Shown here: positions 3,835 through 59,225 of the stretch, piece after piece
Layout of the letters: every line of letters starts with the position of its first letter
Position numbering within the stretch: the stretch's first letter is position 1
Assembly (NCBI GenBank): GCA_027366525.1
Contig: DAHXKG010000008.1
Location: 26,556-90,555 of the forward strand
Reading direction: 5' to 3'
Origin: a candidate division FCPU426 bacterium
Lineage (GTDB): Bacteria > Oederibacteriota > Muellerivitia > Muellerivitales > DAHXKG01
Length of the DNA: 64,000 bases
Notes under the pieces: generated by a model
Told to the model about the DNA's origin: nothing
Seen by the model: only the letters and a program-made list of their open reading frames with translations
Databases searched by the model: none
Made by a program: the position numbers and the translations under genes

Positions 3835-3917
3835 ATCGTTAAAATTTAAAAAGGATGAATTTAAACTTGGAGAGAACTTGTTATGGTGAAAAGATTTTCT
3901 TGGAAAGTAATTTTTTA

Positions 3918-6020
3918 ATGAAAAAAATTATTTGGAGTTTAAGTTTAGGGTTGTTGCTTGTGAGTTGTCTTATAAGCCGTGGGTATGCCCAAAATACCAA
4001 TTCACTTATTTTTGATCAACCCAATTCGTCGGGAATAGGTCCACGAGCAATGGGCATGGGGAATGCCTTCAGCGCGGTAGCCGATGATACCTCAGCAGTT
4101 TACTGGAATCCGGCAGGTTTAGTTCAAATTCCAGCATATGCACTCTCACTTTCAAGTGCTCCAATCTATTTCCAACAAAAGCTTAATGGGGTTCCGCTGT
4201 TTGGAGAACCATATTATGCGTCAATCCAATTTGTAGCTCCTATTTCACAAGAAAATACATTAGCGATTTCTTTGTTTAGAAATTTTCATCCTCAAATCGA
4301 TTTTTTTACTGGAAATACATCATTGTCGCTAGCTCAACAGGATGAGGCCAGCTATCTTTTAAATCCATCTTTTCAGGCAGATGAGTTGGTTTTATCATAC
4401 GCGGCTGATTTTGCGTCGTTCCCGGATTTTTCAATCGGTGTTAATGTTAAAAGTATTACCAATGATCGATATTACATAAGTAACTTCCCAATTAATGCAG
4501 CAAGTGAACCGGGCGTTTATAATGCTCTTCAAAATCCCATTCGTGTTCGAGGGTTTGGAGTTGATCTGGGGTTTTTATATCGAATTCCTTTAACGAAATA
4601 CACGCAAGAGCTTCGAGCTGCTGTGGTATTAAAAAACTTGGTTAGTCGTGTGGATTTTTTAAATGGATTAATTTTCAATAGTACTTCTGGTGTTGCTTTT
4701 AATATTGGTCCTGGATTTGAAACCCAAGTTCCACCAGAAGCTATTATTGGCGTTGCATATAAAAACAATGCGTTTTTTGGGATTCGCAATATTACAGATA
4801 TCGATTTTGATCAAATTTCTGATCCACGATATAACAGCAATAATAATAAATATATTCGTGTGGGAACAGAATTTTGGTTATTCCATGACATTCTTGGAAT
4901 TCGCGGTGGATACGAGACACTTTTAAGCACGCCAGGAACCTTAACCTTAGGGGCGAGTGTACGGGCTTTAAATGGTGATTTTGAGACCGACATTGCATAT
5001 TTGAAGCCAATTTCACCGAATGTTCAAACTCAACCCAATTCTCAAATTGCGACTTTAACGTCTAATGGCGTTAATTTTGAAGATTTTTATATTGGTCTTT
5101 CATATTACTTCGGGCAAGCTCCGGCTATCCCGCCACCGACCGTACATGCTTCAGTGTTTCCCCAAGCTTTTCAACCTTCGCAAGGTCAAACAGCTGCCTT
5201 TGCTTTAGATACTTCCGAAGGCATTCCTATAAAGAATTGGAATGTATTTATTTATAATTCACAGAATCAACTGGTTCGAAATATTGGGGCGCAAGGCAAT
5301 CCGCCTACAACGATTTTATGGGGTGGCGAAAACAATCAGTTCCAGCCCTTGCCGCCAGGGGTATATACATGGGCATTTCAAGTCCGAGATCGATTAAATC
5401 ACGTTGGTGCTACACGAATTCATTCAGTTGAAATTTTGCCACCACCTATATCTCCTGTTGCACCTAACCCCGCAAAATTGTATACTATGAGACAACAACA
5501 AGTTGCGCTGCTGAATCAAGAACGTCAACAACTATCCAATTTAGCGCAAAAGGAAATGCAAAAATTGCTAGCTGCAGCTACGCCAAACACAGCTCCTGCT
5601 TATGCCGGTCCGGTTTCTTATGTGACAAATGCAGCCGGAAATACAACAGTACCTAGTGCGGGACCGGTACCGGTACTAGGGTTTACTAATTTACCACCGC
5701 AACAAGTACTCAATGTGCATTTCCGGCCAACTGCTACGGGTCAAACGAATGTAGTTATTAATTATCAATCCCGACTCGATTATGTCCCTTATATTTACCA
5801 AGAAGCAGGACAAGTAATTCGATCGGCAGCGAAGTCGTTGGGCACTTCAACCATCAATCAAGTAATTACCCATGTTTATTATGGGAAGAATGAAATGACA
5901 ATTCAAACGCCTTCTGCTGTTGCTTTGGAATATGCTCACCGAGCTATTCGGTTGCAACAAACATTAAATCTGTCCACGATTGTTATTGATGGACAAAAGG
6001 TAGCTCCAAATGGGATTTAA
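3918..6020 (+). CDS. FadL/PorV-family outer-membrane beta-barrel protein with a C-terminal FlgD-Ig-like domain, embedded in the flagellar operon
   Basis: The ORF track gives 3855..6020. A likely start is the ATG at 3918 (MKKIIWSLSLGLLLVSCLISRGYAQ signal peptide). The N-terminal hatch motif GPRAMGMGNAFSAVADDTSAVYWNPAGL is FadL/PorV-like. Roughly aa 435-520 (ILWGGENNQFQPLPPGVYTWAFQVRD) resembles FlgD Ig-like / Por C-terminal sorting domain folds. Confidence 0.6.
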   Translation: MKKIIWSLSLGLLLVSCLISRGYAQNTNSLIFDQPNSSGIGPRAMGMGNAFSAVADDTSAVYWNPAGLVQIPAYALSLSSAPIYFQQKLNGVPLFGEPYYASIQFVAPISQENTLAISLFRNFHPQIDFFTGNTSLSLAQQDEASYLLNPSFQADELVLSYAADFASFPDFSIGVNVKSITNDRYYISNFPINAASEPGVYNALQNPIRVRGFGVDLGFLYRIPLTKYTQELRAAVVLKNLVSRVDFLNGLIFNSTSGVAFNIGPGFETQVPPEAIIGVAYKNNAFFGIRNITDIDFDQISDPRYNSNNNKYIRVGTEFWLFHDILGIRGGYETLLSTPGTLTLGASVRALNGDFETDIAYLKPISPNVQTQPNSQIATLTSNGVNFEDFYIGLSYYFGQAPAIPPPTVHASVFPQAFQPSQGQTAAFALDTSEGIPIKNWNVFIYNSQNQLVRNIGAQGNPPTTILWGGENNQFQPLPPGVYTWAFQVRDRLNHVGATRIHSVEILPPPISPVAPNPAKLYTMRQQQVALLNQERQQLSNLAQKEMQKLLAAATPNTAPAYAGPVSYVTNAAGNTTVPSAGPVPVLGFTNLPPQQVLNVHFRPTATGQTNVVINYQSRLDYVPYIYQEAGQVIRSAAKSLGTSTINQVITHVYYGKNEMTIQTPSAVALEYAHRAIRLQQTLNLSTIVIDGQKVAPNGI

Positions 6021-7587
6021 AAAACTAATTCTTTTGACTGCATTAGTGCTTTTAACGGGAACGGCCTGGGGAAGTTATTTTACCCTTGGGGGTGTATCCG
6101 GATTTGGGGCTAGACCTATTGGAATGGGTGAAGCGTATGCGAGTGTGGCCGATGGCCCAAGTGCTATTTTTTATAACCCGGCAGGACTAGTTCAGGTACT
6201 TCGACCCACTATTTCAGGCATGGGAGCTGCACTTTTAAATGGAAAAGAATTTACGGGCGACTTGGAATATGTTCAGCCTTTTGGTGATCAGATGGCATGG
6301 GCGATTGCAAGCACGGAATTGTATCACACAGAAGGGGCTTTAACCGTCGAGCGAGTTTATTACGTGACTTTAGCAACGCCGTTATCCATCAATAAGTCAT
6401 TTTCATTTGGTGTTAATTTTAAATATTACACGGTGAGTTCTTCAGTTCTCCCTGATAGTGCAGGCGATGCATTTGGAATTGATTTAGGCTTTTTATATCA
6501 TATCCCCATTCCTAATCCAACTTATGGAAAGCAAATCAACTTGGGTTTGAGTGTTCAAAACTTGGATACAGTGCTCACCCAATCCAACGGAGCGAGCCAA
6601 CAACTTCCCACAGACGTTCATGTGGGATTAAGCTATCAAATTAATAATTCCTTAGAAGCTGCGTTCGAAACCGAATCGTTTAAAGATCCGGATACAAACG
6701 GAAAAGTAACCATCCTTCATGCCGGCATTGAGGCTTGGTTCTTTCAAGACCATTTGGGTTTAAGAACGGGTTATGATGGATTCCAAACATTAAATGGTGA
6801 ATTTACCGCTGGTATTAGTTACCGGGGGTCAAGCTGGGGAATTGACTATGCCTATATTGGGCATCCGCAGTTCTTGGGGTCATCACATCGTATTTCTGCC
6901 GAATGGCGTTTTGGAAGAAGTTTCTTGGGGAATTCAGAAACATTTGTTCCTCAAGATGTCGTGGCTTATGTTCGCGGCAACATTATTACCATTCAATGGA
7001 CAGGGTCGCGAAGTATTAACTTAGAAGGTTATAATGTTTATTTTACCAAAACGTCAGGTTCAAACTATGTCAAAATCAATCAAAAACCGATTCAAGAAAA
7101 TTACTATGCTGTTCGAGGTCTTGAAAAAAACACTACATATTATTTTGTTGTAACTTCGGTTATGAATACAAAGCCGCCGATGGAAAGCCAATATTCACGT
7201 GAGGTTCGAGCGATCACAACTTCGGCTCCAGTAGCGCCTGTTTTGGCTAAAGCGCAAGTAAGCCAAGAGGGGGCCATCGATGTGGCTCGGCAATTTGACA
7301 TGGTTTCCTTTGGAAGTCCAGCCAAGCAGGGCTTAAAAGGATATAACATTTATATGTCAGAGGTTCAGGGTGGGCGATTTATTAAGGTGAATGGGTTGCC
7401 AATTGGGAATGTGCCAACCTATGTTGTTCGTCACCTATCCATTGGACAAACCTATTATTTCCGCTTTACTTCAGTGGGGACCAATGGGGTGGAAAGTGCA
7501 CCTTCGAAAGAAGTTTCGGCGATTGCATTGCCTTATGCGACGGTGATTCAATCAACGCTTACATTGCCTAAAAAATCAAAACCTTAA
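6010..7587 (+). CDS. FadL/PorV-family outer-membrane beta-barrel protein with two C-terminal fibronectin type III-like domains
   Basis: Signal peptide present. The motif GARPIGMGEAYASVADGPSAIFYNPAGL is a paralog of the upstream gene's hatch motif. There are two FN3-like repeats (YNVYFTKTSGSNYVKIN...TTYYFVVTSV and YNIYMSEVQGGRFIKVN...TYYFRFTSV). The start overlaps the upstream gene and the stop lies 15 nt before flgF. Confidence 0.6.
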   Translation: MGFKKLILLTALVLLTGTAWGSYFTLGGVSGFGARPIGMGEAYASVADGPSAIFYNPAGLVQVLRPTISGMGAALLNGKEFTGDLEYVQPFGDQMAWAIASTELYHTEGALTVERVYYVTLATPLSINKSFSFGVNFKYYTVSSSVLPDSAGDAFGIDLGFLYHIPIPNPTYGKQINLGLSVQNLDTVLTQSNGASQQLPTDVHVGLSYQINNSLEAAFETESFKDPDTNGKVTILHAGIEAWFFQDHLGLRTGYDGFQTLNGEFTAGISYRGSSWGIDYAYIGHPQFLGSSHRISAEWRFGRSFLGNSETFVPQDVVAYVRGNIITIQWTGSRSINLEGYNVYFTKTSGSNYVKINQKPIQENYYAVRGLEKNTTYYFVVTSVMNTKPPMESQYSREVRAITTSAPVAPVLAKAQVSQEGAIDVARQFDMVSFGSPAKQGLKGYNIYMSEVQGGRFIKVNGLPIGNVPTYVVRHLSIGQTYYFRFTSVGTNGVESAPSKEVSAIALPYATVIQSTLTLPKKSKP

Positions 7588-16077: not shown

Positions 16078-18672
16078 TTGGATAACGTTACTAATATTTT
16101 AAATCAATTAAGTCACAGTTCAAAAACAACAATAATGGATTTATTGTCTGGGAAAAATTTGCCCAGTTCTACTTCCTCAAACAGTGAAAATTCCAATTTT
16201 CAGAAAGTATTAAAGGAATTATTAAGTTCAGCGGCCACGATACCCAATAATGAATCTTCGAGTTCTAATGTAGCTAGTCAAGTTTCAACTAGCCTTTTTG
16301 AAGAATCACTCACGCTACAAAATAATACCCCAACGCCAACAACGTTAAATACCCAATCCACGATATCAAGTTTGTCTTTAAATAGTCCCTCGACAAATAG
16401 CTCCTCGACAATTTTGGAATCTTCTAGTTTGCTTTTAAATCTGTTGTCGACTTTGCTGACAGTTAATTCCCAAAATAATGTTTCTCCCAATACCAGTGCA
16501 ACAGGTTTATCAAATTCTGAAAATAATATCGGAAATTTATTGAATTATCTTCAGAAGACGATGAATCAATTTTTAAATTTATTGTCAGATATTCAAACGC
16601 TGCCCATGTCTCAAATCCAAGCCACGTTGGAACAGATGACCCATCTCCAAGGTTCATCCGCCTCCATTACAACTTTTCTTAATAATTTACAATCTGATTT
16701 AAAAAATATATCCAAGCAAACGACACAAACGCCTAAACAAATTATGGGGAATGTGACCTTTCAACAAGTGGTTTTTCAAGCTATTTTGATTCAGGGAGTA
16801 GAACAATCAAATAATACTCAATCTTCGACAAGCAAGACTTTTTCAACATCGTCCACAATGGTTTTCTCAGGGATGATAAGTGTTGAGAGTTTAGATTTCG
16901 GGGTATTATTAAATCAAACGAATGGATCTACTCCGGTTAATAAGGGGATGACGGGTTCAGCGAGTACGCTACTTCAGTCAACCAATCCAAATTTACTATC
17001 AAACTCAGGCAAAAATTTGGGTGATTTGATTCAATTATTAGCTCAATCCAATGTTTCCCAAGCAATTTTAGAAATTGCAGTTCAAACTTGGAATGCGAGT
17101 GCTCAAATGAATTCAATGACCAATAAAGATTCATCCATACCCAACTCGCTATCCATTTCTTCCGCGAGTAGCATTAATGTTAATGAGAATTCTAAAAGCT
17201 TGGTTCGGGAAATTTTGAATTCCACACAAGGATCAAACTTAAAAACGAATGAGCTTTCTTCCAATTCAACTGTAATTACACCATCGTCGGTTCAAAATCC
17301 AACGCAAGAACAATTGGCTTCAAGTTTTAAAACTATTTTGACGGAACTAACCAGTTTAAGTCAAAAAATGGCCGACCAGACCCTCACTGCTTCTGAAGCA
17401 TTGCAACAGCTGCGCCCCATTATTGAAACTTTAAGTCATTTGGGAATTCAATTGAACAATTCCATTACGCCCGCGAATTTAATGAGTGAGGTTCAAACGA
17501 TTACTGAATTGGTAAAAAATTCGATTAATAGTATTAATATGACGAACTCCGTAAACACGAATTTGAAATCTTCCACCCTGCCGCTGAATCAGGAGAACAA
17601 GACTACGATATCCCTGACTGCGTCAGACCCGTCATCGACCCCAAACTTGAAATCTTCCACCCTGCCGCTGAATCAGGGGAACAATAGTACAATATCCCTG
17701 ACTGCGTCAGATCCGCCATCGACCCCAAATTTGAAGTCTTCCACCCTGCCGCTGAATCAAGAGAGCAACAGTACGCTTGCCATGAGTGTTCCAACTCCTT
17801 CATCCACGACTAATTTGAAACCCAGTATGGAAGTGCAAAACCTATCAGAAAACACTTCTAATACAGGACTTGAAACAGTTTATCCATTAAACGTATCAAA
17901 ATTGGTCGCTAATTCAGGATCCGATAAATTGAGTTCCAATAATCAAGAACTCTCGCTTACGACAGGGATCACGCTCAATGAATCTACGTTAGGTGTTGCT
18001 CCTAAAACCACATCCAGCACTTCAAATACACCAACAAACTTACTAAATCAAAATACTAATAAGGTGATTGAGCCGAGCCCTGTTGCTGAAAACGGAAAAT
18101 TAGTTTCTTCTGGTGCTAAAACAATATTAGGATCTGGGCATATAACTCCAAATATGGCTGAATCGGCCGCATCGTTGACCGCGGGATCGACAGCAGTTTT
18201 GGGTAACAATGAAAGTTTAGGTACTCTAAATCCTGCTATCTTGTCAACAATGATTATCAACCAAATTAGCACTCAAGTTTCCAGTCAATTACAGCAGTTA
18301 CATGTTCAATCACAGATTAACTTCCAGCTAATTCCTGAAAATTTGGGTAAGGTGGCTGTTCAACTGGTTTTAGTCGATCAGACTGTTTCCGCTAATATTG
18401 TAGTGACTAATGCGGATGTGCGCGATCTCCTGCAGCACCATCTGGTGGAGTTGAACTCAGCGCTAATTCAATCTGGCCTTCAAATCAGCAATCTTCAAGT
18501 TCATGTACAAACTGGCTCCTCGAATCTTTTGGGGCAATATTATCAATACCAACAAGAGTCGACGAAAAACAAAAAGTTGTCAACATTATTATCTGGTGGT
18601 GGTATTATATCAATGACTTCTGAAGTTGCGGGAATAGTTTATGATCAAGGAGCAGTAAATATATTGGCTTAA
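16078..18672 (+). CDS. fliK: flagellar hook-length control protein FliK (Ser/Thr-rich, with internal 27-aa tandem repeats)
   Basis: The C-terminal Flg_hook domain is present (INFQLIPENLGKVAVQLVLVDQTVSANIVVTNADVRDLLQHHLVELNSALIQSGLQISNLQVHVQ). The body is long, low-complexity and S/T/N-rich. TTG start. Confidence 0.8.
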   Translation: MDNVTNILNQLSHSSKTTIMDLLSGKNLPSSTSSNSENSNFQKVLKELLSSAATIPNNESSSSNVASQVSTSLFEESLTLQNNTPTPTTLNTQSTISSLSLNSPSTNSSSTILESSSLLLNLLSTLLTVNSQNNVSPNTSATGLSNSENNIGNLLNYLQKTMNQFLNLLSDIQTLPMSQIQATLEQMTHLQGSSASITTFLNNLQSDLKNISKQTTQTPKQIMGNVTFQQVVFQAILIQGVEQSNNTQSSTSKTFSTSSTMVFSGMISVESLDFGVLLNQTNGSTPVNKGMTGSASTLLQSTNPNLLSNSGKNLGDLIQLLAQSNVSQAILEIAVQTWNASAQMNSMTNKDSSIPNSLSISSASSINVNENSKSLVREILNSTQGSNLKTNELSSNSTVITPSSVQNPTQEQLASSFKTILTELTSLSQKMADQTLTASEALQQLRPIIETLSHLGIQLNNSITPANLMSEVQTITELVKNSINSINMTNSVNTNLKSSTLPLNQENKTTISLTASDPSSTPNLKSSTLPLNQGNNSTISLTASDPPSTPNLKSSTLPLNQESNSTLAMSVPTPSSTTNLKPSMEVQNLSENTSNTGLETVYPLNVSKLVANSGSDKLSSNNQELSLTTGITLNESTLGVAPKTTSSTSNTPTNLLNQNTNKVIEPSPVAENGKLVSSGAKTILGSGHITPNMAESAASLTAGSTAVLGNNESLGTLNPAILSTMIINQISTQVSSQLQQLHVQSQINFQLIPENLGKVAVQLVLVDQTVSANIVVTNADVRDLLQHHLVELNSALIQSGLQISNLQVHVQTGSSNLLGQYYQYQQESTKNKKLSTLLSGGGIISMTSEVAGIVYDQGAVNILA
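17560..17802 (+). repeat. three tandem copies of an 81-nt repeat inside fliK (NLKSSTLPLNQ-E/G-N-x-TTISLTASDPSSTP)
   Basis: Near-identical 81-nt units are read directly in the sequence. The protein-level repeats are visible in the ORF translation. Confidence 0.9.
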
Positions 18673-21545: not shown

Positions 21546-22568
21546 TTGTTTAGGATTAAATCAGTTTGTGATAATATCCAAGTGCTTAAGCCTTTTAAAA
21601 AAAACCAGTTATTCTACTGGTTAATAATGGGTTTTTTTTTTATTTCAGTTTGTTTAGCAGGTTGTAGTTCAAACCCAACTTCGAATCAAGTTTCAAATTT
21701 TACAGTTCTTGCATCATTTTCATCGAATCAGTCAGTAACCCTTCAAGCACCCTATGGGATCTATGTGGCTCCTTCTACTGGAAATGTGTATGTAACTAAT
21801 TGTAACCCATCGGCGAATGAACCGGCCATAGTTGAATTATCAAGTAATCTGACGTATATAGCGGGCTTTGGAAAAACTAGCGCTACGTTCGATCAAAATC
21901 AAGCAGGAACTTTTTTTCAACCACGTGGAATCACCTCAGATGGAACGAATTTCTACATTTCAGATTGGCAGAATAGTCAAGTGCAAGGTTACAATGGGTC
22001 ATCTTTTTTTATAGCTCCCGTATCACCCGTACAAGAAGATCCTTGGGGGATTGATTATGATCGTAGTGCGACCTCACTTTTAGTGGTTGAAAATGCTGAA
22101 TTCCAATCCAACTCCAACTCCAACTTGAGTCAAGTTTATTCTTTTAACATAGGCTTAAGCGCGTCAAGTCCTTTAGAAAATATCACTCAACCGATTGATT
22201 TAATCGGAGTAACGGCCGATTCAGCGGGCAATATCTATGTGACAGATAATAAGAATGAGCGAATTATCAAGTTTAATTCAGCTGGTGTTTCTTTGACTTC
22301 CTGGGGGTCTCGTGGAAGCCTGCCAGGACAGTTTTCGTCAGGCATTTCAGGCATTATGGCCGACAGTTCCAATAATATTTGGGTTACAGATATGGGAAGT
22401 GGTGCGGGTTCAATTCAGGAATTTTCGAATAGTGGAGCTTTTGAAGGGGAATGGAAGGCCCCGCCGAGTCTTTCTCTTTTTGCGCCGGCGGATATCCAAA
22501 TTGGCCCAAATGGCAATTTTTATGTATGTGATGCTGAAAATAGTGTAGTCTATGAGCTTAGTTTATAG
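21546..22568 (+). CDS. NHL-repeat beta-propeller lipoprotein
   Basis: Probable lipobox FFFISVCLAGC (alternative start near 21627). At least five NHL-like repeats (NVYVTNCN, NFYISDWQNSQVQGY, NIYVTDNKNERIIKFN, NIWVTDMGSGAGSIQEF, NFYVCDAENSVVYEL). Confidence 0.65.
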   Translation: MFRIKSVCDNIQVLKPFKKNQLFYWLIMGFFFISVCLAGCSSNPTSNQVSNFTVLASFSSNQSVTLQAPYGIYVAPSTGNVYVTNCNPSANEPAIVELSSNLTYIAGFGKTSATFDQNQAGTFFQPRGITSDGTNFYISDWQNSQVQGYNGSSFFIAPVSPVQEDPWGIDYDRSATSLLVVENAEFQSNSNSNLSQVYSFNIGLSASSPLENITQPIDLIGVTADSAGNIYVTDNKNERIIKFNSAGVSLTSWGSRGSLPGQFSSGISGIMADSSNNIWVTDMGSGAGSIQEFSNSGAFEGEWKAPPSLSLFAPADIQIGPNGNFYVCDAENSVVYELSL

Positions 22569-22868: not shown

Positions 22869-24059
22869 ATGTCAACACCGGTCACTTTTTATGCATCAAA
22901 TCCACTGTTGGCGACTTTACCAACTGCCAAGACCACAAACCTACCTTTTAAAAATACGATTCAATCGCCTCAATCGGAATCATCAAACAATCATGTTCCT
23001 TTAGAAATTCAAACTGCTCGCAATCAAGTATTGAAACGTTTTAAAATGGTTCCAGATATGATTCAAAGTGCCCTTTACCAAGTTTCAGCCATAAAAATAC
23101 AAACCACATCATTTAATAACGAATTTAGCAATCGCACTTTAACGTTAAATACCAAGAATGGTTTTTCGTCTCAAAATAATTCAGTTAAAAATACGTTAAC
23201 GGAAAACTCCCAAACTTTTTTAAATCCAATGAAGCCGGTTTCTTTGTCTCATCTAGCAACGACAGAAGTAAATACACCTGCGCGACCGACGGAAGCTCCA
23301 TCCTTAATACAAACTGAAGTGAAAAATAAAGTGCCTTCCTTGGGAACGCAAATCACAACGGGACAAATTCAAATGAAGGAAAAGCATCCATCATCATTAT
23401 CAACTGAATTAGAAACAAGGGCACTCTCACAAGGAGGAAATAAAAATCTGCTTTTAAATGCAGCGGTCAACATTTCAACACCCTTATCTACACGATTACA
23501 AAGCGCTCATCAAAAAATGGATGCGGTTCAAAGGCATGTAGTGACGGCAGAAGTTTTGCTCAATCGAGTTAATAATCAGCGTACGGCAACGGGTAATATT
23601 CATCCACCCCAACCAGGACCGATCACCCCATTTTCACATCCGGTATCACAGATTCAAAAAAATCGGAGAGAAACAATAATAACGAATCGTGCGATTGCAA
23701 TCCATGATTCAGTGATTAATCAAACCGTAACACAAACAACCCAATTGAAAAATAGAAGTATGCAATTAATTCAGACATTAGGGACTGGTTTTTTTACAGG
23801 CCAGAATATAACTAATATAACCAATTTAAAGCCAACCCCTTCTCAGACTCTTCCTCCCGTTTCAGCGACCTCAACCGTTCAAAATTTATCTCAAGTAAAT
23901 TCGCAAACTGAGTTTCCAAATTTATTTTTGTCTTCCCCCGTTCAAGCTACTTCAGCAAATTTAATACCTCAGGCGCCCAAAACTCCATATCAAGTTCTAG
24001 AATCAAGAATTCCATTGAGAGCGGGAATGACTTTGAATTTATTAAATCTGACGCTTTAA
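22869..24059 (+). CDS. hypothetical Ser/Thr/Gln-rich protein downstream of flbD
   Basis: 396-aa low-complexity ORF starting 18 nt after flbD. No recognisable domain. Confidence 0.4.
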   Translation: MSTPVTFYASNPLLATLPTAKTTNLPFKNTIQSPQSESSNNHVPLEIQTARNQVLKRFKMVPDMIQSALYQVSAIKIQTTSFNNEFSNRTLTLNTKNGFSSQNNSVKNTLTENSQTFLNPMKPVSLSHLATTEVNTPARPTEAPSLIQTEVKNKVPSLGTQITTGQIQMKEKHPSSLSTELETRALSQGGNKNLLLNAAVNISTPLSTRLQSAHQKMDAVQRHVVTAEVLLNRVNNQRTATGNIHPPQPGPITPFSHPVSQIQKNRRETIITNRAIAIHDSVINQTVTQTTQLKNRSMQLIQTLGTGFFTGQNITNITNLKPTPSQTLPPVSATSTVQNLSQVNSQTEFPNLFLSSPVQATSANLIPQAPKTPYQVLESRIPLRAGMTLNLLNLTL

Positions 24060-24075
24060 ATAAAAAGGAACAATA

Positions 24076-25191
24076 ATGGCCAAAAAATGCTTAGGATGGT
24101 TATTAATTCTTATTCTTTTACCAACGTTCGTATGGGCGAGTGGATTTTCCGATCCACAAAATGAATGGGAGTTTGGAAATGGGTATGGTCCTGTTACGGT
24201 TTTTCACCAATGGACATTAACGACTTCAAATTCAAATGCCAACATTGAACTTCAACAAGCTGTGAGCACAGTTTATCCTGGGGAAACGTATGCCGGAGCG
24301 GTAACATCAACATCCTCTTTAGCCTCAGACAATATCACGATGACTTATAGTGTGCCAAGTACAGTTACTGTTAGCGTTCCAAATTATTTACAAATTTATG
24401 TGAATTCATCCGTTTCATTAGCTTTTCATTTTATAGTTACGGACACTTCAGGAAATGCAGTTACACTAACGGCACAAATTATCAGTCCCGGGTGTGCGTC
24501 GTTGTCTTCTACGAGTGCAGATATATGGGATACAGTATTCGTTACCTTGACATCAGCACAAACCATTTTGAATAATATTTCAACGGTGCAAATTTCGACA
24601 AGCATGGGGAGTAATTCGCTTTCTTCAAGTCCAATTTATTTAGATAATTTAATAACCACTAGCCAAAATCCAGCTGCCGCATGTAATACGCCTACACCCA
24701 CACCGACACCAGTGCTCACAGCTATTCCAACGCCGACGGGAACTATTTTTACTCCTACATATACTCCCACGGGTTCAATTACTCCAACGCCGACTCCGAC
24801 TATTTTTATTACTCCGACACCAACGGCGACTGCAACGCCTATGTGTCCAATTTCGGTTTATCCAAATCCCATGAACTTTCAAGCAGGCCCAAATAGTTTT
24901 CCACCAGGCCCATACGTTAATCATTGTCCCAATGATCCATATGGATGCATTAAATTTGATTGTGTTCCATTTGGATCAACGTTAAAAATATATACCATTT
25001 CGTTAGAACTTGTGCAAACATTTGGACCGAATTCCATTATTCCAATGGGTAATGGAAATGGAAGAATTATTTGGGACGGCGACAATAGCAATCAGGATCC
25101 CGTTGCTGCGGGAATTTATTTTTATCTAATTACTAATCCTTTGGGGCATTGGACCGGTAAATTTGCAATTGAACAAGCGAGGCCCAATTAA
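24076..25191 (+). CDS. secreted protein with a Thr/Pro linker and a Por-type (T9SS-like) C-terminal sorting domain
   Basis: Signal peptide present. A TPTPTPTP...TPTPTATATP linker is followed by ISVYPNPMNF...GRIIWDGDNSNQDPVAAGIYFYLITN, which matches the Por_Secre_tail / FlgD-Ig-like consensus (vYPNPa...GvYfy). Confidence 0.55.
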   Translation: MAKKCLGWLLILILLPTFVWASGFSDPQNEWEFGNGYGPVTVFHQWTLTTSNSNANIELQQAVSTVYPGETYAGAVTSTSSLASDNITMTYSVPSTVTVSVPNYLQIYVNSSVSLAFHFIVTDTSGNAVTLTAQIISPGCASLSSTSADIWDTVFVTLTSAQTILNNISTVQISTSMGSNSLSSSPIYLDNLITTSQNPAAACNTPTPTPTPVLTAIPTPTGTIFTPTYTPTGSITPTPTPTIFITPTPTATATPMCPISVYPNPMNFQAGPNSFPPGPYVNHCPNDPYGCIKFDCVPFGSTLKIYTISLELVQTFGPNSIIPMGNGNGRIIWDGDNSNQDPVAAGIYFYLITNPLGHWTGKFAIEQARPN

Positions 25192-26153
25192 TGGTTCGGC
25201 AACGTTTTTTTTTGAAAATTCTTTTTTTCCTGATTTTTATTCCAACGATGGTTTGGGCCTCGTCAGGCTCGGCAGGAATAAGCGCATTTGATTTTTTGGA
25301 AATTTCACCCATTGCTCGAGCAACAGCCATGGGCGGTGCTTATGCGGCATTGGGGAATGATATAGGTTCTATTTATTATAACCCGGCCGGACTTGCGGAT
25401 ATTTTAACGACGCAAGTCGATGTTACATATCTGGATTTGTATCAAAATATTAGCGATGAATTTTTTGCATTTGCCTATCCTTTAAAACCCAAACTTTCTT
25501 CGATTGGAGGAACATTTGCTGCAGCATTGAATTTAATTCAAACCGGTTCATTCCCAAGATTAGATGATTTTGGAAATAATATTGGCAGTTTTACTAGTGG
25601 GATGGATGAATTTATGTTGGCGTATGCAAAATCGTTGGGTTCACGTGTGCAATTTGGATTGACCGCTAAATTCCTTAATCAACAGATTGATCAAATTTCA
25701 CAATCCGCTTTTGCTATGGATATCGGAACTTTAATTTTGCCGCCTGTATCTGGAATGCGCATTGGATTAGCGATCCAAAATCTGGGTGGAACAGTGAATA
25801 ATTTTAATTTGCCATGTATGCTTTTAGCAGCAGTGTCCTATCGCAAATATGATCTTTTCTCGTATCAAGATGATGGGGCTTTTACCGTTCAAACTACGGT
25901 TCCAATTCAACCTGTCGGGCAAACACCAGAAGTTCAAGTCGGTGCAGAATATAATTATAAGTTGGTGGGCCAACGGTTTAGTCTCCGCGGGGGCTATCAA
26001 TTTTTAAATAATTCTTTGCAAGGCATTGGAATGACGTTGGGGGCTGGTTATGGAGTCGATTTCAATGGAGCCGTCGTATTTATCGATTATGCCTTTGAAC
26101 CTGCAGGCGTTTTTGGAAATTCGAATCGTATTTCTTTGATTACTAAGTTTTAA
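25191..26153 (+). CDS. PorV/PorQ (FadL-like) family outer-membrane beta-barrel protein
   Basis: Signal peptide plus ARATAMGGAYAALGNDIGSIYYNPAGL hatch motif. 320 aa with a C-terminal aromatic residue (F). The start overlaps the stop of the sorting-domain protein. Confidence 0.6.
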   Translation: MVRQRFFLKILFFLIFIPTMVWASSGSAGISAFDFLEISPIARATAMGGAYAALGNDIGSIYYNPAGLADILTTQVDVTYLDLYQNISDEFFAFAYPLKPKLSSIGGTFAAALNLIQTGSFPRLDDFGNNIGSFTSGMDEFMLAYAKSLGSRVQFGLTAKFLNQQIDQISQSAFAMDIGTLILPPVSGMRIGLAIQNLGGTVNNFNLPCMLLAAVSYRKYDLFSYQDDGAFTVQTTVPIQPVGQTPEVQVGAEYNYKLVGQRFSLRGGYQFLNNSLQGIGMTLGAGYGVDFNGAVVFIDYAFEPAGVFGNSNRISLITKF

Positions 26154-26206
26154 TCATGTAAAATAGTTGATAATAATGAGCAACTTAATTTAGAGGGTAA
26201 TAAATT

Positions 26207-27154
26207 TTGAGAAAAATTTTTGTTATTTTGATGGTCTTTTTTTTAACAACAGGGGTTAGTTTAGCTGCCTCGCCTGGAACAACCGGAGGGAGCATTCTTC
26301 AAGTGGTGGAAGGCGCCATTCCAGCAGGTATGGGGGGGGCTTTTACCGCGATTGCAAGTGGTGATTATGCCATTGATTATAACCCGGCAGGATTGGTTTC
26401 CTTGGATGCTCCGGAAGCGGTGGCAATGTATCACTCTGAATTAGCAACTATTTCAGATGATTATTTTACCTTCGCGACTCCCATTAATACTACTCAAGCA
26501 ATTGCGTTGCATATTAGTTATGATTATATTCCGCCCATTAACAATGGAAATGGCAATCCGGCAGTTAATGCGTATGATATCTTATTTATGGGTACCTATG
26601 CATTTAAACTATCCAATTTTATTCAACTGGGTGCATCTTTAAAATATTTGAGGTCAGTTTTAGCTTATTATGGAACTTCAGCAATTGCTGTAGATTTAGG
26701 GGGACAAATTTCTCATCTGCCTTTTGGATTAAAGGGCGGCCTGGCCATTCAAAATCTGGGTGGACAGTTAAAATATTTGAGTGTGGGTGTGCCCTTACCT
26801 CTGATTATTCGCATTGGGCTTGGATGGGAAACATTGGTTGATCAAAAACGCAAATTAGAACTAGATTTAGATGTTGTGGATGATTCAAGTGAAGGCATGG
26901 GGATTCGATTGGGTGGGGAATATTGGGTGTTTCCAAGATTGTTTGCAATTCGAGCTGGAATCAATAAAATTTCGCAAAATGTTTATAATAGTGGATTCCC
27001 TCCAAGTCTTGGATTTACTTTGACAGATGAAGTTGACTCCAATAAGTATTCGTTAGATTTTGCCTACAACCCGGCTACTTTACCGGGATCCATTGTCGAT
27101 AATACGTATTTAGTGTCTTTGCGTTGTTCATTTGAAAACTGGACAATATTTTGA
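26207..27154 (+). CDS. PorV/PorQ (FadL-like) family outer-membrane beta-barrel protein, paralog
   Basis: Signal peptide plus AIPAGMGGAFTAIASGDYAIDYNPAGL motif. 315 aa, ends in F. TTG start. Confidence 0.55.
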   Translation: MRKIFVILMVFFLTTGVSLAASPGTTGGSILQVVEGAIPAGMGGAFTAIASGDYAIDYNPAGLVSLDAPEAVAMYHSELATISDDYFTFATPINTTQAIALHISYDYIPPINNGNGNPAVNAYDILFMGTYAFKLSNFIQLGASLKYLRSVLAYYGTSAIAVDLGGQISHLPFGLKGGLAIQNLGGQLKYLSVGVPLPLIIRIGLGWETLVDQKRKLELDLDVVDDSSEGMGIRLGGEYWVFPRLFAIRAGINKISQNVYNSGFPPSLGFTLTDEVDSNKYSLDFAYNPATLPGSIVDNTYLVSLRCSFENWTIF

Positions 27155-27221: not shown

Positions 27222-27297
27222 GCCGAGGTAGCTCAGTTGGTAGAGCGACGGACTGAAAATCCGTGCGTCGCCGGTCCGATTCCGGCCCTCGGCACCA
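27222..27297 (+). tRNA. tRNA-Phe (anticodon GAA)
   Basis: Cloverleaf read from the sequence: acceptor GCCGAGG/CCTCGGC, D-arm GCTCAGTTGGTAGAGC, anticodon loop CTGAAAA, T-arm GCCGG-TCCGATT-CCGGC, discriminator A, encoded CCA. Confidence 0.9.
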
Positions 27298-35552: not shown

Positions 35553-37364
35553 ATGAAAACGATTTTACATTGGATGGGTAATTTGCATTTGAATTTATCA
35601 AGTGAAGTTAAAAAAGTGATTATAAAAACAAGCATACTTTTTTGGGTATTGAGTGTTGGGTTGTTAACGCTTGGGACATCACAATCCTATGCTTCCCCAG
35701 ATCCATTATTCGTCAATGGAAATGAGGTTGTAACGAGTGCCGGCTGCACGGTTCATCTTCGTGGGGTCGATATTGATAGCATGGAATGGTATGATGGTAA
35801 TGGAGATCCTGGAGAAGGCCCTCCCGGTGGATATGGAGGAACCATTATTGGTTCGGTCCAAGAGGCGGTAACGGCTTGGCATGTGAGTATTATTCGTCTG
35901 CCACTGAATCAAGATTTTTGGTTTGGATGTGGAGGAGCGGGTGCAGTAACTTATCAAGACACTGTGGCTAATATTGTTAATTATTGCTCAACTAATAATG
36001 TCTATGTGATTCTCGATTTACATTGGTCAGGAACCTATGCAGGGCTTGCCACGGCAGGTGCAACCACGTACACCTCACCTTGTTCAGGAGCAGGATGGGG
36101 TACGGCAACGGGGCAGCAATCCATGGCGGACGGAAATGCGGTTACCTTTTGGAGTTCCGTGGCGGCAACGTATGCCAATAATCCTGCGGTTTTATTTGAT
36201 TTATATAATGAACCCTTTGTTTCCAGCTGGTCTGTTTGGCAATATGGTGGAACAACCGGTGGCATACCGGCTTGGACACCGGGGATGCAAGGACTCTTGA
36301 ATGCAGTAAGAGCTACTGGCGCTAATAATATTTGTTTAGCGGGTGGACTGAGTTATGCACACAATTTAACTCAAATTTGCGATTACCCATTAACAAATGT
36401 TGGAAATGGTATTGTTTTTTCTGCCCATATTTATGGAAATCAACTAGGCGATACTTCATCAGGATGGGGGCCTGATATTGATCCGGCAACTGTGTGTGGC
36501 CCAGTATTTATTGGTGAGATGGGACCTTCAACTAGTTGTAATACTAATAATAGTACTTTTGATAGCAATGTTTTTTCGTGGATTGATAACACGACTGGAA
36601 TTATAGGAGGCACAGCATGGTCGATGACTACCACGTCTTGCCCAAATCTTTTGACAAGCTATAGTAATTTTGTTCCAACTTCTTGGGGTATGGCTGTTTC
36701 TACATGGTTAACAACTCCAGTTCCAACATGTGTATCCTCCCCCATCCCCACAAATACGGTAACATCAACTCCAACCATTACGGCAACAGCAACAGTTACC
36801 AAAACACCCACAGTTACTCCCACGATTACACTTACTGGGACTTCAACCGCAACGCTGACGGTTACGAATACGCTAACAATAACACCAACAGCTACACCAA
36901 CGGCAACGTTAACACCAACGCTTACGCCAACATGGACTCCCACAGGAACGATTACTCCACAAGTAACCAATACGGCTACTCCTACAAAAACTCCTACGGT
37001 GACCCCAACCCAGACTCCGACCATAACTCCGACAATAACGTCAACGGTTACGATAACGGCTACTCCATCACTGGTTCAAGACTCTATATCTTATCCATAT
37101 CCGAATCCGCCCGAATTGGGTGGATCAATTTTTGTTCAGATTAAAACAAGTCAAATTTCAACAGTAACCTATTCAGTTTTTACAACGGCATATCGAAAAA
37201 TTTTTGAAAGAGAAGTAGCAATTGATGGAAATGGGATTATCAGTTGGAACTTGTTAGATCAAAATGGAGGCAAAGTTGCCAACGGAGTGTATTATTTAAA
37301 AATAGTTGTTAAAAATCTAAACGAAACATTACAAAGAATCGATAAAATTATTATTATTCAATAA
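35553..37364 (+). CDS. glycoside hydrolase family 5 endoglucanase with a Thr/Pro-rich linker and a Por-type C-terminal sorting domain
   Basis: GH5 catalytic motifs LYNEPF (acid/base) and FIGEMG (nucleophile). A roughly 110-aa TPT repeat linker is present. The C-terminus YPYPNPPELGGSIFVQIK...NGVYYLKIVVKNLNETLQRIDKIIIIQ matches the Por secretion tail consensus. Confidence 0.8.
   Translation: MKTILHWMGNLHLNLSSEVKKVIIKTSILFWVLSVGLLTLGTSQSYASPDPLFVNGNEVVTSAGCTVHLRGVDIDSMEWYDGNGDPGEGPPGGYGGTIIGSVQEAVTAWHVSIIRLPLNQDFWFGCGGAGAVTYQDTVANIVNYCSTNNVYVILDLHWSGTYAGLATAGATTYTSPCSGAGWGTATGQQSMADGNAVTFWSSVAATYANNPAVLFDLYNEPFVSSWSVWQYGGTTGGIPAWTPGMQGLLNAVRATGANNICLAGGLSYAHNLTQICDYPLTNVGNGIVFSAHIYGNQLGDTSSGWGPDIDPATVCGPVFIGEMGPSTSCNTNNSTFDSNVFSWIDNTTGIIGGTAWSMTTTSCPNLLTSYSNFVPTSWGMAVSTWLTTPVPTCVSSPIPTNTVTSTPTITATATVTKTPTVTPTITLTGTSTATLTVTNTLTITPTATPTATLTPTLTPTWTPTGTITPQVTNTATPTKTPTVTPTQTPTITPTITSTVTITATPSLVQDSISYPYPNPPELGGSIFVQIKTSQISTVTYSVFTTAYRKIFEREVAIDGNGIISWNLLDQNGGKVANGVYYLKIVVKNLNETLQRIDKIIIIQ
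36740..37070 (+). repeat. low-complexity ACN/CCN codon repeat encoding the Thr/Pro linker of the GH5 protein
   Basis: Read directly. Produces spurious alternate-frame ORFs (36659..37024 - and 36683..37144 +). Confidence 0.8.
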
Positions 37365-57344: not shown

Positions 57345-59225
57345 ATGAGTTTAGAAGCCTTATATACAGGAGTTTCAGGCCTTCAAGCTACAAGTACTTG
57401 GATGGATATCATTGGGAATAATATTGCCAATAGCAATACTGTTGGATTTAAAAGCAGTCGTGCTATGTTTTCAGAACAGCTAACTCAATTTTTACAATAT
57501 GGAACCAGTCCAAATAATCAATCAGGTAATGGGGGGACGGATTCAGAAGTAATTGGTCTGGGAACGAAACTTCAGGATATTCAAACATTGTTTGTTCAAG
57601 GCCCTACCTTGGAAACGGGTATTTCAACCGACATATCCATTCAAGGCAATGGATTTTTAATTGCTAAGCAAGGCAATCAGACCTATTTAACTCGGGATGG
57701 GCAACTGTCATTTGATGCGAATGGCAATTTGGTAAATGCCTCAGGGGAGCTCATACAGGGATATACAGCGGTGCCTCAGTTTCTAAAAACAGGCCTAAAT
57801 ACCTATTCCAATATTCCAGGACAACCTGCTTTGATTACGGATGCCTCTCTAACGCTCAATACCACAGGAACCATTGGCAATATTCAGATTCCTCAAGATT
57901 TAACCATGCCGCCTAAAGCCACTTCGGAGATTAATTTTAGTGGCAACTTGGATGCATTGCAGCAAGCTAATCAACCTGGTGGAATCGTTGATTTATTTCC
58001 GGGCTTTCCGGCTCCCAATGCTTCGCCGTCCTTGCCATTAGGTTTGGATTTAGCTTATTTTGGGCCTGTAGGCTTAAATCCCCAAAAGGCCCAACCTATT
58101 ATTTTGCCGGGGGGAGGAATTGCAATTCAACAAGTGGGAAATTTAGCAGGTCCAGCCGCTCCAGGATCCTCAACGGTGGAGCCAGTAGTATTGGGTGCGG
58201 TAAATTTAGGGTTCGTTAAAGCCTTTAATAATTTTGCGTGGGATCAAAATCCGCCGATTCCACCTGCCGATGAAACCTCAACCACGGTCTATGATTCGTT
58301 GGGTAACCCGCATCAAATTACCTTTCTCTTCTACCAAGTCAATGATTTAGGTTCCGCAGGTGTCAATAACCCCAATGGGCCTAATCAAGTCGCATATGCG
58401 TGGTATGCGTTTGATACCACGGGGGGCCAAAAACCGACAACAGCAAATTTGTTGGGTGGAACTGGCATTTGGGAAGGTAATTTGTCCAATCCAGGTGGGT
58501 TGACGTTTTATGACCGAAACCAAAATAATTTTTATTTTGGAGATTTGCTCTATTTCAATACGGATGGTTCTTTGGCATCTACCGGTGGTACAGAAGGAAT
58601 TGGAGGACCGGGAGGACTAGCATATCCATCAATTCCTGAAATTTATCTTCCTCCATTCAATTCCAATCCTCCCGTGTCACCGATTCCAACGGATGGTGCG
58701 GAAATTATGGGGATCCAAATTAATTTTGGGACGCCCGGGGTTTTAACACAAGGACAACGAAATGGGTTAATTAGTGATGCGGAAGGCAGCTATCAGGTAA
58801 AAAATGGACAGCAAGTTTATATTCCACAACAAACCGCGTACGTTTCATCACAAAATGGATATCCCGATGGGCAATTAGAGAGCTTGAGTTTTAATCAGAC
58901 TGGTGTAATTCAAGGTGCATTTTCGAATGGTCAAAATGTAAGCTTGGGGCAAGTTGCTTTAGCCAATGTTGAAAATACGGGTGGCCTTAATGCAAATGGA
59001 AACAACCAGTTTACTACCTCGACCAATTCAGGAGCAACTTTTGAAGGGTTGGCAGGACAAAATGGATTGGGGCTAGTCCAGGGAGGAACTCTGGAAGGCT
59101 CTAATGTGAATTTAGCAACGGAACTTTCGAATATGATTATAGCCCAAGAAGCCTTTAATTCAAATGCTCGGACAGTTACAACTGTTAACCAAGTCCTAAA
59201 GGTTTTAGATCAACTCGGTCAATGA
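57345..59225 (+). CDS. flgE: flagellar hook protein FlgE (copy 2, paralog of 19654..21483)
   Basis: N-terminus YTGVSGLQATSTWMDIIGNNIANSNTVGFKSSR and C-terminus GGTLEGSNVNLATELSNMIIAQEAFNSNARTVT. Shares long internal blocks with copy 1 (LFYQVNDLG.AG.N.P......QVAYAWY.F.TTGG). 626 aa with no Cys. Confidence 0.85.
   Translation: MSLEALYTGVSGLQATSTWMDIIGNNIANSNTVGFKSSRAMFSEQLTQFLQYGTSPNNQSGNGGTDSEVIGLGTKLQDIQTLFVQGPTLETGISTDISIQGNGFLIAKQGNQTYLTRDGQLSFDANGNLVNASGELIQGYTAVPQFLKTGLNTYSNIPGQPALITDASLTLNTTGTIGNIQIPQDLTMPPKATSEINFSGNLDALQQANQPGGIVDLFPGFPAPNASPSLPLGLDLAYFGPVGLNPQKAQPIILPGGGIAIQQVGNLAGPAAPGSSTVEPVVLGAVNLGFVKAFNNFAWDQNPPIPPADETSTTVYDSLGNPHQITFLFYQVNDLGSAGVNNPNGPNQVAYAWYAFDTTGGQKPTTANLLGGTGIWEGNLSNPGGLTFYDRNQNNFYFGDLLYFNTDGSLASTGGTEGIGGPGGLAYPSIPEIYLPPFNSNPPVSPIPTDGAEIMGIQINFGTPGVLTQGQRNGLISDAEGSYQVKNGQQVYIPQQTAYVSSQNGYPDGQLESLSFNQTGVIQGAFSNGQNVSLGQVALANVENTGGLNANGNNQFTTSTNSGATFEGLAGQNGLGLVQGGTLEGSNVNLATELSNMIIAQEAFNSNARTVTTVNQVLKVLDQLGQ

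Follow-up and report, generated by a model that had tools for sequence, protein, structure and literature searches.

A conserved gene trio of candidate division FCPU426 encodes a protein with an extended type IX-like C-terminal domain and two PorV/PorQ-family barrels

A stretch of 64,000 nucleotides from a candidate division FCPU426 bacterium (assembly GCA_027366525.1, contig DAHXKG010000008.1, forward-strand positions 26,556 to 90,555; "the window" below means this whole stretch) contains three tandem genes, the trio, that encode a secreted protein which we call the cargo and two outer membrane barrels of the PorV/PorQ family, barrels 1 and 2. The tail of the cargo is homologous to type IX secretion system (T9SS) C-terminal domains (CTDs), folds like the PorZ and PorU CTDs, and represents a subclass that we call extended; the barrels are of a PorV-like and not of a generic FadL type; and tail and barrel form a CTD-carrier pair, conserved across phyla, in which both the extended tail and the PorV/PorQ subfamily are distinct. 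We favor, with a probability of roughly 0.55, the reading that the trio is a dedicated module for surface display or anchoring, in which a glycan-binding protein keeps its tail and is attached by it to cognate barrels that act as carrier and anchor.

The cargo and its extended C-terminal domain

The original prediction of three open reading frames (ORFs) of 371, 320, and 315 codons, the first overlapping the second, was borne out by the ORF call (Table 1): the TAA stop of the cargo gene and the ATG start of barrel 1 share one base (TAATG), and barrel 2 begins with TTG, 53 nucleotides past barrel 1. Ribosome-binding sites precede the cargo gene (AAGGA) and barrel 2 (GAGGG), all three proteins have Sec-type signal peptides, that of the cargo reading MAKKCLGWLLILILLPTFVWA and being followed by SG, and both barrels end in Phe. 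Because orthologs lie in the same order in 12 other genomes and the AlphaFold models are confidently folded, these are real genes and not chance ORFs. A promoter and terminator scan from 18.5 to 29.3 kb was uninformative: terminator-like sites occurred at chance level, none of them in the trio intergenic gaps or past barrel 2, and the four found inside 24076-27154 all fall within coding sequence.

The cargo family is small, with 13 full-length homologs in a search of 5.8 billion clusters, and its architecture is kept throughout. In the AlphaFold model, the N-terminal β-sandwich (residues ~44-200) has a predicted local distance difference test score (pLDDT) of about 80, the linker (residues 206-255), which differs in length between homologs, has a pLDDT below 50, and the C-terminal sandwich (residues 257-371) has a pLDDT of 85-90. 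The top-ranked matches overall in a structure search with the cargo model were carbohydrate-binding modules (CBMs), aligned to the N-terminal domain. A likeness of this domain to the flagellar sheath protein FlaA1 proved to be generic jelly-roll similarity, since FlaA1 ranks among dozens of CBMs.

The tail is a seven-strand, immunoglobulin (Ig)-like 3+4 β-sandwich at the extreme C-terminus, with VYPNP at residues 261-265 and GIYFY at residues 346-350. Across the cargo homologs it holds VYPNP, G[ILF]YFY, and a Lys in the last strand (Lys362, in GKFAI) that is invariant in all 13, as is typical of type A CTDs; a conserved Lys in the C-terminal motif has been emphasized for T9SS CTDs (PMC11285876). 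The extended tails found in bacteria of the Fibrobacteres-Chlorobi-Bacteroidetes (FCB) superphylum, described below, have GK[IL]AIIK or G[ST][IL][IV]I[IV]K as their last strand. The best-scoring NCBIfam match of the tail is the PorZ C-terminus, and among CTDs its structural matches are those of PorZ and PorU, both of the retained kind; against PDB sequences, a ten-tail profile gave no more than marginal matches (PorU, PorZ, FlgD, and C5a peptidase). A phmmer search with the tail against 1.84 billion representatives returned 332 relatives, and the domain stands at the extreme C-terminus in 99 of the 115 that were tabulated, the other 16 being multi-repeat proteins.

What sets the extended tails apart is an insertion of 20-30 residues, common to all full-length members, between strand 1 (V[VF]PNP[YF]) and strand 2 (I.F..LP). 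Among the cargo homologs Cys284 and Cys291 are invariant, and Cys257 and Cys296 are both present in eight, both absent in five, and never found one without the other (window 24844-24966). To judge from this pattern the insertion probably holds two disulfides, and the covariation together with the invariant cysteines argues that the tail domain folds outside the cytoplasm.

Two PorV-like barrels

Both barrels pass the NCBIfam "PorV/PorQ family" model NF033709 (128.2 bits for barrel 1 and 130.4 bits for barrel 2, against a cutoff of 90), in agreement with the tandem PorV/PorQ-family barrels originally proposed. Neither reaches the models for PorV or PorQ proper: scores for barrels 1 and 2 are 54.4 and 60.1 bits with the PorV equivalog NF033710 (cutoff 250), 97.3 and 61.6 bits with the PorQ equivalog NF033711 (cutoff 220), and 46.8 and 32.5 bits with the PorV2 equivalog NF052325 (cutoff 325). 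The Pfam PorV model scores under its gathering score, Pfam Toluene_X and UPF0164 match weakly, and PorP_SprF is unmatched by either barrel in a Pfam scan at E<=1.

A profile of 67 barrel-family members finds Flavobacterium johnsoniae PorV (6h3i_F) at E=1.5e-37, whereas its matches to TodX and FadL have E values of about 1e-6. The AlphaFold model of barrel 1 (pLDDT 89.4) has 14 strands, an N-terminal hatch, and short helices at residues 34-70; its best solved match is PorV from the substrate-bound translocon (8gl6_F; E 6.9e-13, TMq 0.73, compared with about 0.55 for FadL and TodX), and PorV from the apo translocon (6h3i_F) is also among the best. The 14 strands, the hatch, the signal peptide, and the C-terminal aromatic residue are as expected of the FadL-type barrels that make up the PorV/PorQ family. 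We reject a plain FadL transporter identity because PorV is far better in both sequence profile and fold. Barrels 1 and 2 share 26% identity, and each is about equally distant from the barrels of other phyla (BLAST); on these alignments they are old paralogs. Barrel 2 orthologs in the 12 other genomes are 37-43% identical to it.

The tail-barrel pair in other phyla

Evidence that tail and barrel belong together comes from distant loci in Ignavibacteria, Melioribacter, KSB1, Cytophagia, Bacteroidales, Rubricoccaceae, and unclassified metagenome-assembled genomes (MAGs). A scan with the barrel profile found a PorV/PorQ-family barrel directly downstream and on the same strand for 16 of 16 FCB-type proteins with a full extended tail, an adjacency that describes this subclass and not CTDs generally, because the loci were fetched by tail similarity alone. 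The gap ranges from -591 to +115 nucleotides in stop-to-stop ORF coordinates, and from -87 to +115 in 15 of the 16. For partial tails, which cover the C-terminal half of the model, a downstream barrel is present in 1 of 27, and six sit just behind such a barrel. The full extended tails of the distant loci are also missed by Pfam CTD models, and their partner barrels score 159-221 bits with NF033709 and fail the PorV, PorQ, and PorV2 equivalogs, as the window barrels do. A search begun at barrel homologs found an extended-CTD protein immediately upstream of the barrel in one more locus (L052), so that a whole-model tail with a same-strand downstream barrel is now seen in the window, in 12 of 12 lineage genomes, in all 16 distant loci, and in L052. 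Barrel P0048 lies in the arrangement TonB receptor - 1178-residue protein - barrel, and a Zixibacteria barrel comes after a tail-bearing protein of 3037 residues. The idea of a cargo with a dedicated barrel, raised as a possibility in the original prediction, is supported by a T9SS-type CTD homolog, by PorV-like barrels, and by the pairing in distant loci.

The FCB-type loci have a characteristic order: a TonB-dependent receptor (CarboxypepD_reg, Plug, and barrel), the extended-CTD protein, the barrel, and then canonical-CTD proteins with DUF4185, DUF4961, or GH38 domains; the gene past the partner barrel often bears a canonical Por_Secre_tail. The extended-CTD proteins of such loci (Table 1) are about 610 or about 1300 residues long and have no Pfam domain, and the Ignavibacteria loci have an ATP-binding cassette sugar importer upstream. 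This organization suggests that the FCB-type loci resemble polysaccharide-utilization loci (PULs) in which the extended-CTD protein occupies the place of the surface glycan-binding protein (SGBP), and in loci of the L033 and L043 type a CTD-anchored protein looks to have replaced SusD. The searchable literature on PorV-like paralogs and on TonB receptor/PorV loci contains no description of this pairing.

Lineage, synteny, and the flagellar neighborhood

The nearest genomes are MAGs labeled candidate division FCPU426, Ca. Firestonebacteria, or unclassified. FCPU426 is synonymous with Goldbacteria, a flagellated, cellulolytic candidate phylum near Firestonebacteria and Elusimicrobia whose members were captured on cellulose particles (PMC7031533); this position beside Firestonebacteria and Elusimicrobia places the lineage outside FCB. 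Twelve other species-level genomes of the FCPU426/Goldbacteria type have orthologs of the trio (37-54% identity) in an unchanged arrangement, and the genes of this region run flgK-fliK-flgD-FlagPut-flgE-(variable)-flbD-(0-2 kb variable)-cargo-barrel 1-barrel 2-(variable)-PGM-RlmH-DinG-RuvB, PGM being phosphoglucomutase. All 12 keep the trio whole and closely packed, with flanks that vary; in the window a tRNA-Phe (GAA) stands between barrel 2 and the phosphoglucomutase and RlmH genes.

The nonflagellar flank (PGM, RlmH, DinG, and RuvB) is as conserved as the flagellar one, so the flagellar neighborhood by itself proves nothing. Flagellar genes do not occur in the contexts of the distant barrel homologs P0048, P0073, P0076, P0119, and P0106, the sigma-28 pattern TAAA-N14-16-CCGATA has 0 matches in the window, and we see no linkage of the trio to flagellar genes beyond lineage synteny. 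Because homologous modules are found elsewhere within TonB-receptor/glycan loci, not flagellar ones, the flagellar setting of the trio is probably lineage synteny and incidental.

The two further PorV-like genes that had been placed inside the flagellar operon of the window do lie there, immediately upstream of flgF, but their products, of 721 and 525 residues, fall just under the NF033709 cutoff (71.8 and 88.5 bits against 90). The two genes overlap, the second ends 15 nucleotides before flgF, and their proteins have 58 orthologs with 47-54% identity. In the genomes checked the pair is flanked by an flhB-like gene and flgF (including the same position in L053 and L054), and its embedding in the flagellar cluster is limited to the FCPU426/Goldbacteria lineage. 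These proteins are a related family and a module separate from the trio; they may be outer membrane accessories of the flagellum.

Possible type IX-like sorting in the lineage

A glycoside hydrolase family 5 (GH5) cellulase encoded elsewhere in the window has a Thr/Pro linker and a canonical type A-like tail which, scanned alone, passes the type A sorting-domain model TIGR04183 (25.6 bits against 23). It is the second protein of the window with a sorting tail, in a lineage in which T9SS is not known, and it makes a T9SS-like sorting pathway in the FCPU426 lineage plausible. Our literature searches on T9SS in Goldbacteria/FCPU426, Firestonebacteria, and Elusimicrobia returned nothing relevant.

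Poribacteria are usually placed outside FCB. A Ca. Poribacteria MAG (L050, 2899-10204) encodes three tandem proteins of about 780 residues with canonical, nonextended C-terminal tails, and the Poribacteria proteins P0070 and P0092 are annotated as PorV/PorQ family. There are hints, then, that T9SS-type sorting parts are more widely spread than reviews state.

Proposed function, precedents, and alternatives

We envisage the following course of events for the trio: i) the cargo would be exported by Sec and would fold in the periplasm, its CTD stabilized by disulfides; ii) it would cross the outer membrane by a T9SS-like route; iii) the uncleaved extended CTD would keep it bound to one or both of the barrels encoded downstream; iv) the barrels would serve as cognate carrier and permanent anchor, like PorQ for PorZ or PorP/SprF-type barrels for type B CTD proteins; and v) the Thr/Pro-rich stalk would hold the CBM-like domain off the cell surface, probably for a plant or microbial glycan. 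Findings on T9SS offer precedents. Carrier proteins bind CTDs by their extracellular loops, and type B carriers remain as anchors (PMC10994853); type B CTD proteins associate with PorP-like proteins (PMC9143113); and PorZ keeps its CTD while seated on PorQ, and a hypothesis has been put forward of "cognate PorV-like barrels" by which a CTD would be shielded from cleavage (PMC10202324). Since the cargo CTD is best matched by two CTDs that are retained, those of PorZ and PorU, a carrier that stays on as an anchor is likelier than the shuttle of the original prediction. A CBM-like, stalked surface protein also fits a group captured on cellulose and a window that encodes a GH5 cellulase.

One of the closest parallels is the P. 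gingivalis T9SS, in which an Ig-like CTD is kept to sit on a 14-strand PorV/PorQ-family barrel, PorZ on PorQ and PorU on PorV; by analogy the cargo may retain its tail likewise, as its CTD has the fold of PorZ and PorU and the barrels are in the same NCBIfam family as PorQ and PorV. The trio differs in that its barrels fail the PorQ and PorV equivalogs, its cargo is CBM-like with neither propellers nor peptidase, its tail has the 20-30 residue insertion, its genes are adjacent and overlapping, and its lineage is outside FCB. Type B CTD proteins with PorP/SprF-type barrels (SprB-SprF; PMC9143113, PMC10994853) resemble the trio in that the cargo gene lies beside the gene for its own barrel, first carrier and then anchor, a role that the trio barrels could share; the trio barrels, however, belong to NF033709 and leave PorP_SprF unmatched, and the tail is not type B. 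PorV, the type A carrier (6h3i, 8gl6), matches the barrels best in structure and sequence, and the tail has the VYPNP, G.YFY, and GK.AI typical of type A, but the PorV gene does not adjoin those of the many cargoes that PorV serves, and the trio tail fails TIGR04183. PorV has about 400 residues compared with about 320 for the trio barrels, which therefore have shorter loops. Finally, the SusD and SGBP surface lipoproteins encoded next to SusC-type receptors in Bacteroidota PULs are matched in position by the FCB-type extended-CTD protein and barrel, which come right after a SusC-like TonB receptor, and in character by the CBM-like domain on a stalk of the window cargo; unlike them, the cargo would be anchored by CTD-barrel contact and not by lipid, is unrelated to SusD in sequence, and has no TonB receptor beside it.

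Several results weigh against our reading. The tail is missed by every curated sorting-domain model: it scores 12 bits against a cutoff of 23 with the type A model TIGR04183, is unmatched by PF18962 (cutoff 27 bits), and reaches 15.5-17.4 bits against 27 with the type B model CHU_C (PF13585); FlgD_ig (PF13860) stays below 27 bits and is weak in 8 of 10 family tails (best E 8.1e-5), with no match reported for the tail of the window cargo itself. The likeness of the tail to a Por/FlgD-Ig consensus, as first predicted, therefore stands by motif (VYPNP and GIYFY) and falls by threshold, and the original prediction had itself held that subthreshold scores against Por sorting-domain models would count against it. 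The strand-3/4 loop reads YT[IV]SL.LVR in the Goldbacteria family, without the Gly of the FCB extended tails (sGE.VR); a Gly in this loop, at the start of strand 4, is functionally important in P. gingivalis CTDs (PMC11285876), and the motif is reported as varying between species. The N-terminal domain of the cargo resembles CBMs at the level of fold only and has no Pfam match. The window trio has no adjoining TonB-dependent receptor, unlike the FCB loci, and has two barrels in place of one barrel and a second CTD protein; and the distant loci were sampled by their tails. Family scans of essentially all ORFs of at least 120 residues found no T9SS core gene in the 64 kb window, and a review puts T9SS genes as absent outside the FCB phyla (PMC11285876), which together leave the outer membrane route unexplained; the lineage combining flagella with T9SS-like sorting that was originally proposed is made plausible by the GH5 tail and not supported by a core gene in the window. 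The domain architecture, the folds, the homology of barrels and tail to PorV and to T9SS CTDs, and the pairing of the genes in several phyla are demonstrated; physical binding of the tail to the barrels, retention of the tail, the outer membrane route, and the ligand are what we infer, and we count the first of these, the tail-barrel contact, as a further weakness.

Other explanations deserve the same scrutiny. The trio might be ordinary T9SS housekeeping, the barrels being the PorV and PorQ of the lineage and the cargo either a type A protein whose tail is cut by PorU or a PorZ-like subunit, with SprA as translocon. The next-best NCBIfam matches of the barrels are indeed PorQ (97.3 bits) and PorV (60.1 bits), the tail resembles PorZ and PorU in sequence or fold as described above, and the GH5 cellulase, whose tail passes TIGR04183, would need a general carrier; yet both barrels are far under the equivalog cutoffs (220-250 bits), one 64 kb window encodes at least four PorV-family barrels, the cargo lacks PorZ-type β-propellers, and the barrel subfamily occurs one-to-one with extended-CTD genes in 16 FCB-type, substrate-specific glycan loci, an arrangement unlike that of housekeeping porV and porQ. 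We consider housekeeping unlikely. Less likely again is a T9SS-independent module, in which the barrel pair, perhaps with the β-barrel assembly machinery, would export and hold the cargo without SprA or GldKLMN in a minimal, two-partner-like display. Such a module would account for a window without T9SS core genes, for the absence of T9SS genes outside FCB that a review reports (PMC11285876), for two barrels rather than one, and for a compact unit kept in 12 genomes, but a 14-strand, hatch-plugged barrel is not known to be able to let a folded 35-kDa protein through, homologous pairs are found in phyla that have been reported as possible T9SS carriers and lie beside canonical Por_Secre_tail proteins, and the canonical type A tail of the GH5 cellulase argues for a general pathway.

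We think it improbable, and more so than either of these, that the trio serves the flagellar motor or filament as an accessory in the outer membrane or periplasm, as the 721/525-residue pair may do. In 12 of 12 genomes flgK-fliK-flgD-flgE-flbD precede the trio, with short gaps and a shared strand, and in every genome examined the 721/525-residue pair has an flhB-like gene on one side and flgF on the other; against this, PGM, RlmH, DinG, and RuvB are equally syntenic, which makes order alone uninformative, flbD and the cargo gene are set apart by insertions that vary from 0 to 2 kb, the pairs of other phyla lie in TonB-receptor/glycan loci and the distant barrel homologs away from flagellar genes, dozens of CBMs match as well as FlaA1 does, and a sigma-28-type promoter is unmatched in the window. 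Least credible of all, in our judgment, is that the genes are unrelated neighbors, FadL-type channels for hydrophobic compounds downstream of an adhesin with a plain Ig-like end domain. The weak Pfam Toluene_X and UPF0164 matches and the subthreshold tail are what such neighbors would give, and the NPAGL hatch motif of the barrel sequence is common to FadL-type proteins; but PorV is much the best match in sequence and fold, the cargo stop overlaps the barrel 1 start, and tail type and barrel type are strictly coupled across phyla.

Anchored display by cognate barrels, the reading that we prefer, can be extended, although we hold the extension only tentatively and think it rather doubtful as a whole. 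The extended tail and its PorV/PorQ barrel could be an ancient, hitherto undescribed third CTD-carrier class, providing SusC-like TonB receptors of FCB bacteria with their glycan-binding partner at the surface, as a lipid-free stand-in for SusD, and operating in Goldbacteria, for which no type IX secretion has been reported, possibly without SprA, with the barrel family also recruited there to the flagellar cluster as outer membrane accessories. In the current view of T9SS, PorV is the general type A carrier, PorP/SprF-type barrels carry type B proteins, and PorQ holds PorZ; a third tail class, distinct in sequence and strictly tied to its own PorV/PorQ barrel, would, if true, extend the "cognate carrier" rule and account for the many tail-bearing proteins that curated sorting-domain models miss. 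The module offers a simple genomic signature for predicting which proteins are surface-anchored and which released in uncultured phyla, suggests how lineages other than Bacteroidia give TonB-dependent glycan importers their surface binding proteins, and leads one to ask whether type IX-like sorting extends past the FCB superphylum into a cellulolytic, flagellated candidate phylum.

Features of the window and neighboring genes

Table 1. Coordinates of the trio, of related features in the window, and of comparable loci (aa, amino acids; window positions except in the last row, where positions are those of the named loci)
Feature	Position	Strand	Description and basis
Cargo gene	24076-25191	+	371 aa; signal peptide, CBM-like domain, Thr/Pro linker, extended CTD (ORF call and model)
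Sec signal peptide of cargo	24076-24138	+	aa 1-21, cleavage after VWA; predicted from sequence; model helix aa 3-19
Cargo N-terminal β-sandwich, CBM-like jelly-roll fold	24205-24675	+	aa ~44-200
Cargo Thr/Pro-rich disordered linker	24688-24843	+	aa ~205-256; sequence, pLDDT <50
Cargo extended C-terminal Ig-like sorting/anchor domain	24844-25188	+	aa 257-371; Cys-containing insertion between strands 1 and 2
Barrel 1	25191-26153	+	320 aa; PorV/PorQ-family 14-strand outer membrane barrel, N-terminal hatch, terminal Phe
Barrel 2	26207-27154	+	315 aa; divergent barrel 1 paralog, PorV/PorQ family
tRNA-Phe (GAA)	27222-27297	+	ARAGORN; 3′ boundary of trio, directly after barrel 2
PorV-like barrel with FlgD-Ig-like segment (aa 445-506)	3855-6020	+	721 aa; NF033709 71.8 bits, FlgD_ig 20.6 bits
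PorV-like barrel with two fn3 domains	6010-7587	+	525 aa; NF033709 88.5 bits, fn3 39.6 bits
GH5 cellulase, Thr/Pro linker, canonical type A-like tail	35553-37364	+	Pfam Cellulase 95 bits; tail ~37086-37361
TonB receptor - extended CTD - barrel loci	L033 3250-13046; L043 1354-18987		Ignavibacteria, KSB1, and other FCB-type MAGs; also L024, L027, L028, L038, L039, L044, L029, L030, L041

Several neighbors of the trio merit mention. An ORF of 396 residues (22869-24059), rich in Ser, Thr, Asn, and Gln and with neither a signal peptide nor a family match, separates flbD from the cargo gene in the window species only; in relatives flbD is followed by the cargo gene directly or past other inserts. 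Between flgE and flbD lies a β-propeller protein with NHL repeats (21546-22568), and a Kelch-type protein occupies the same site in relative L005 (8440-9531); several of the weak cargo-tail matches P0015-P0019 are NHL proteins with similar tails. The FliK-like hook-length protein (16078-18672) is very long, at 864 residues and up to 1194 in relatives, and only its C-terminal ~115-155 residues align with theirs (BLAST, ~50% identity). A second FlgE-like hook protein (626 residues, with the FlgE D2 domain) is encoded at 57345-59225, far from the main flagellar cluster, and relative L009 has two tandem copies of flgE.

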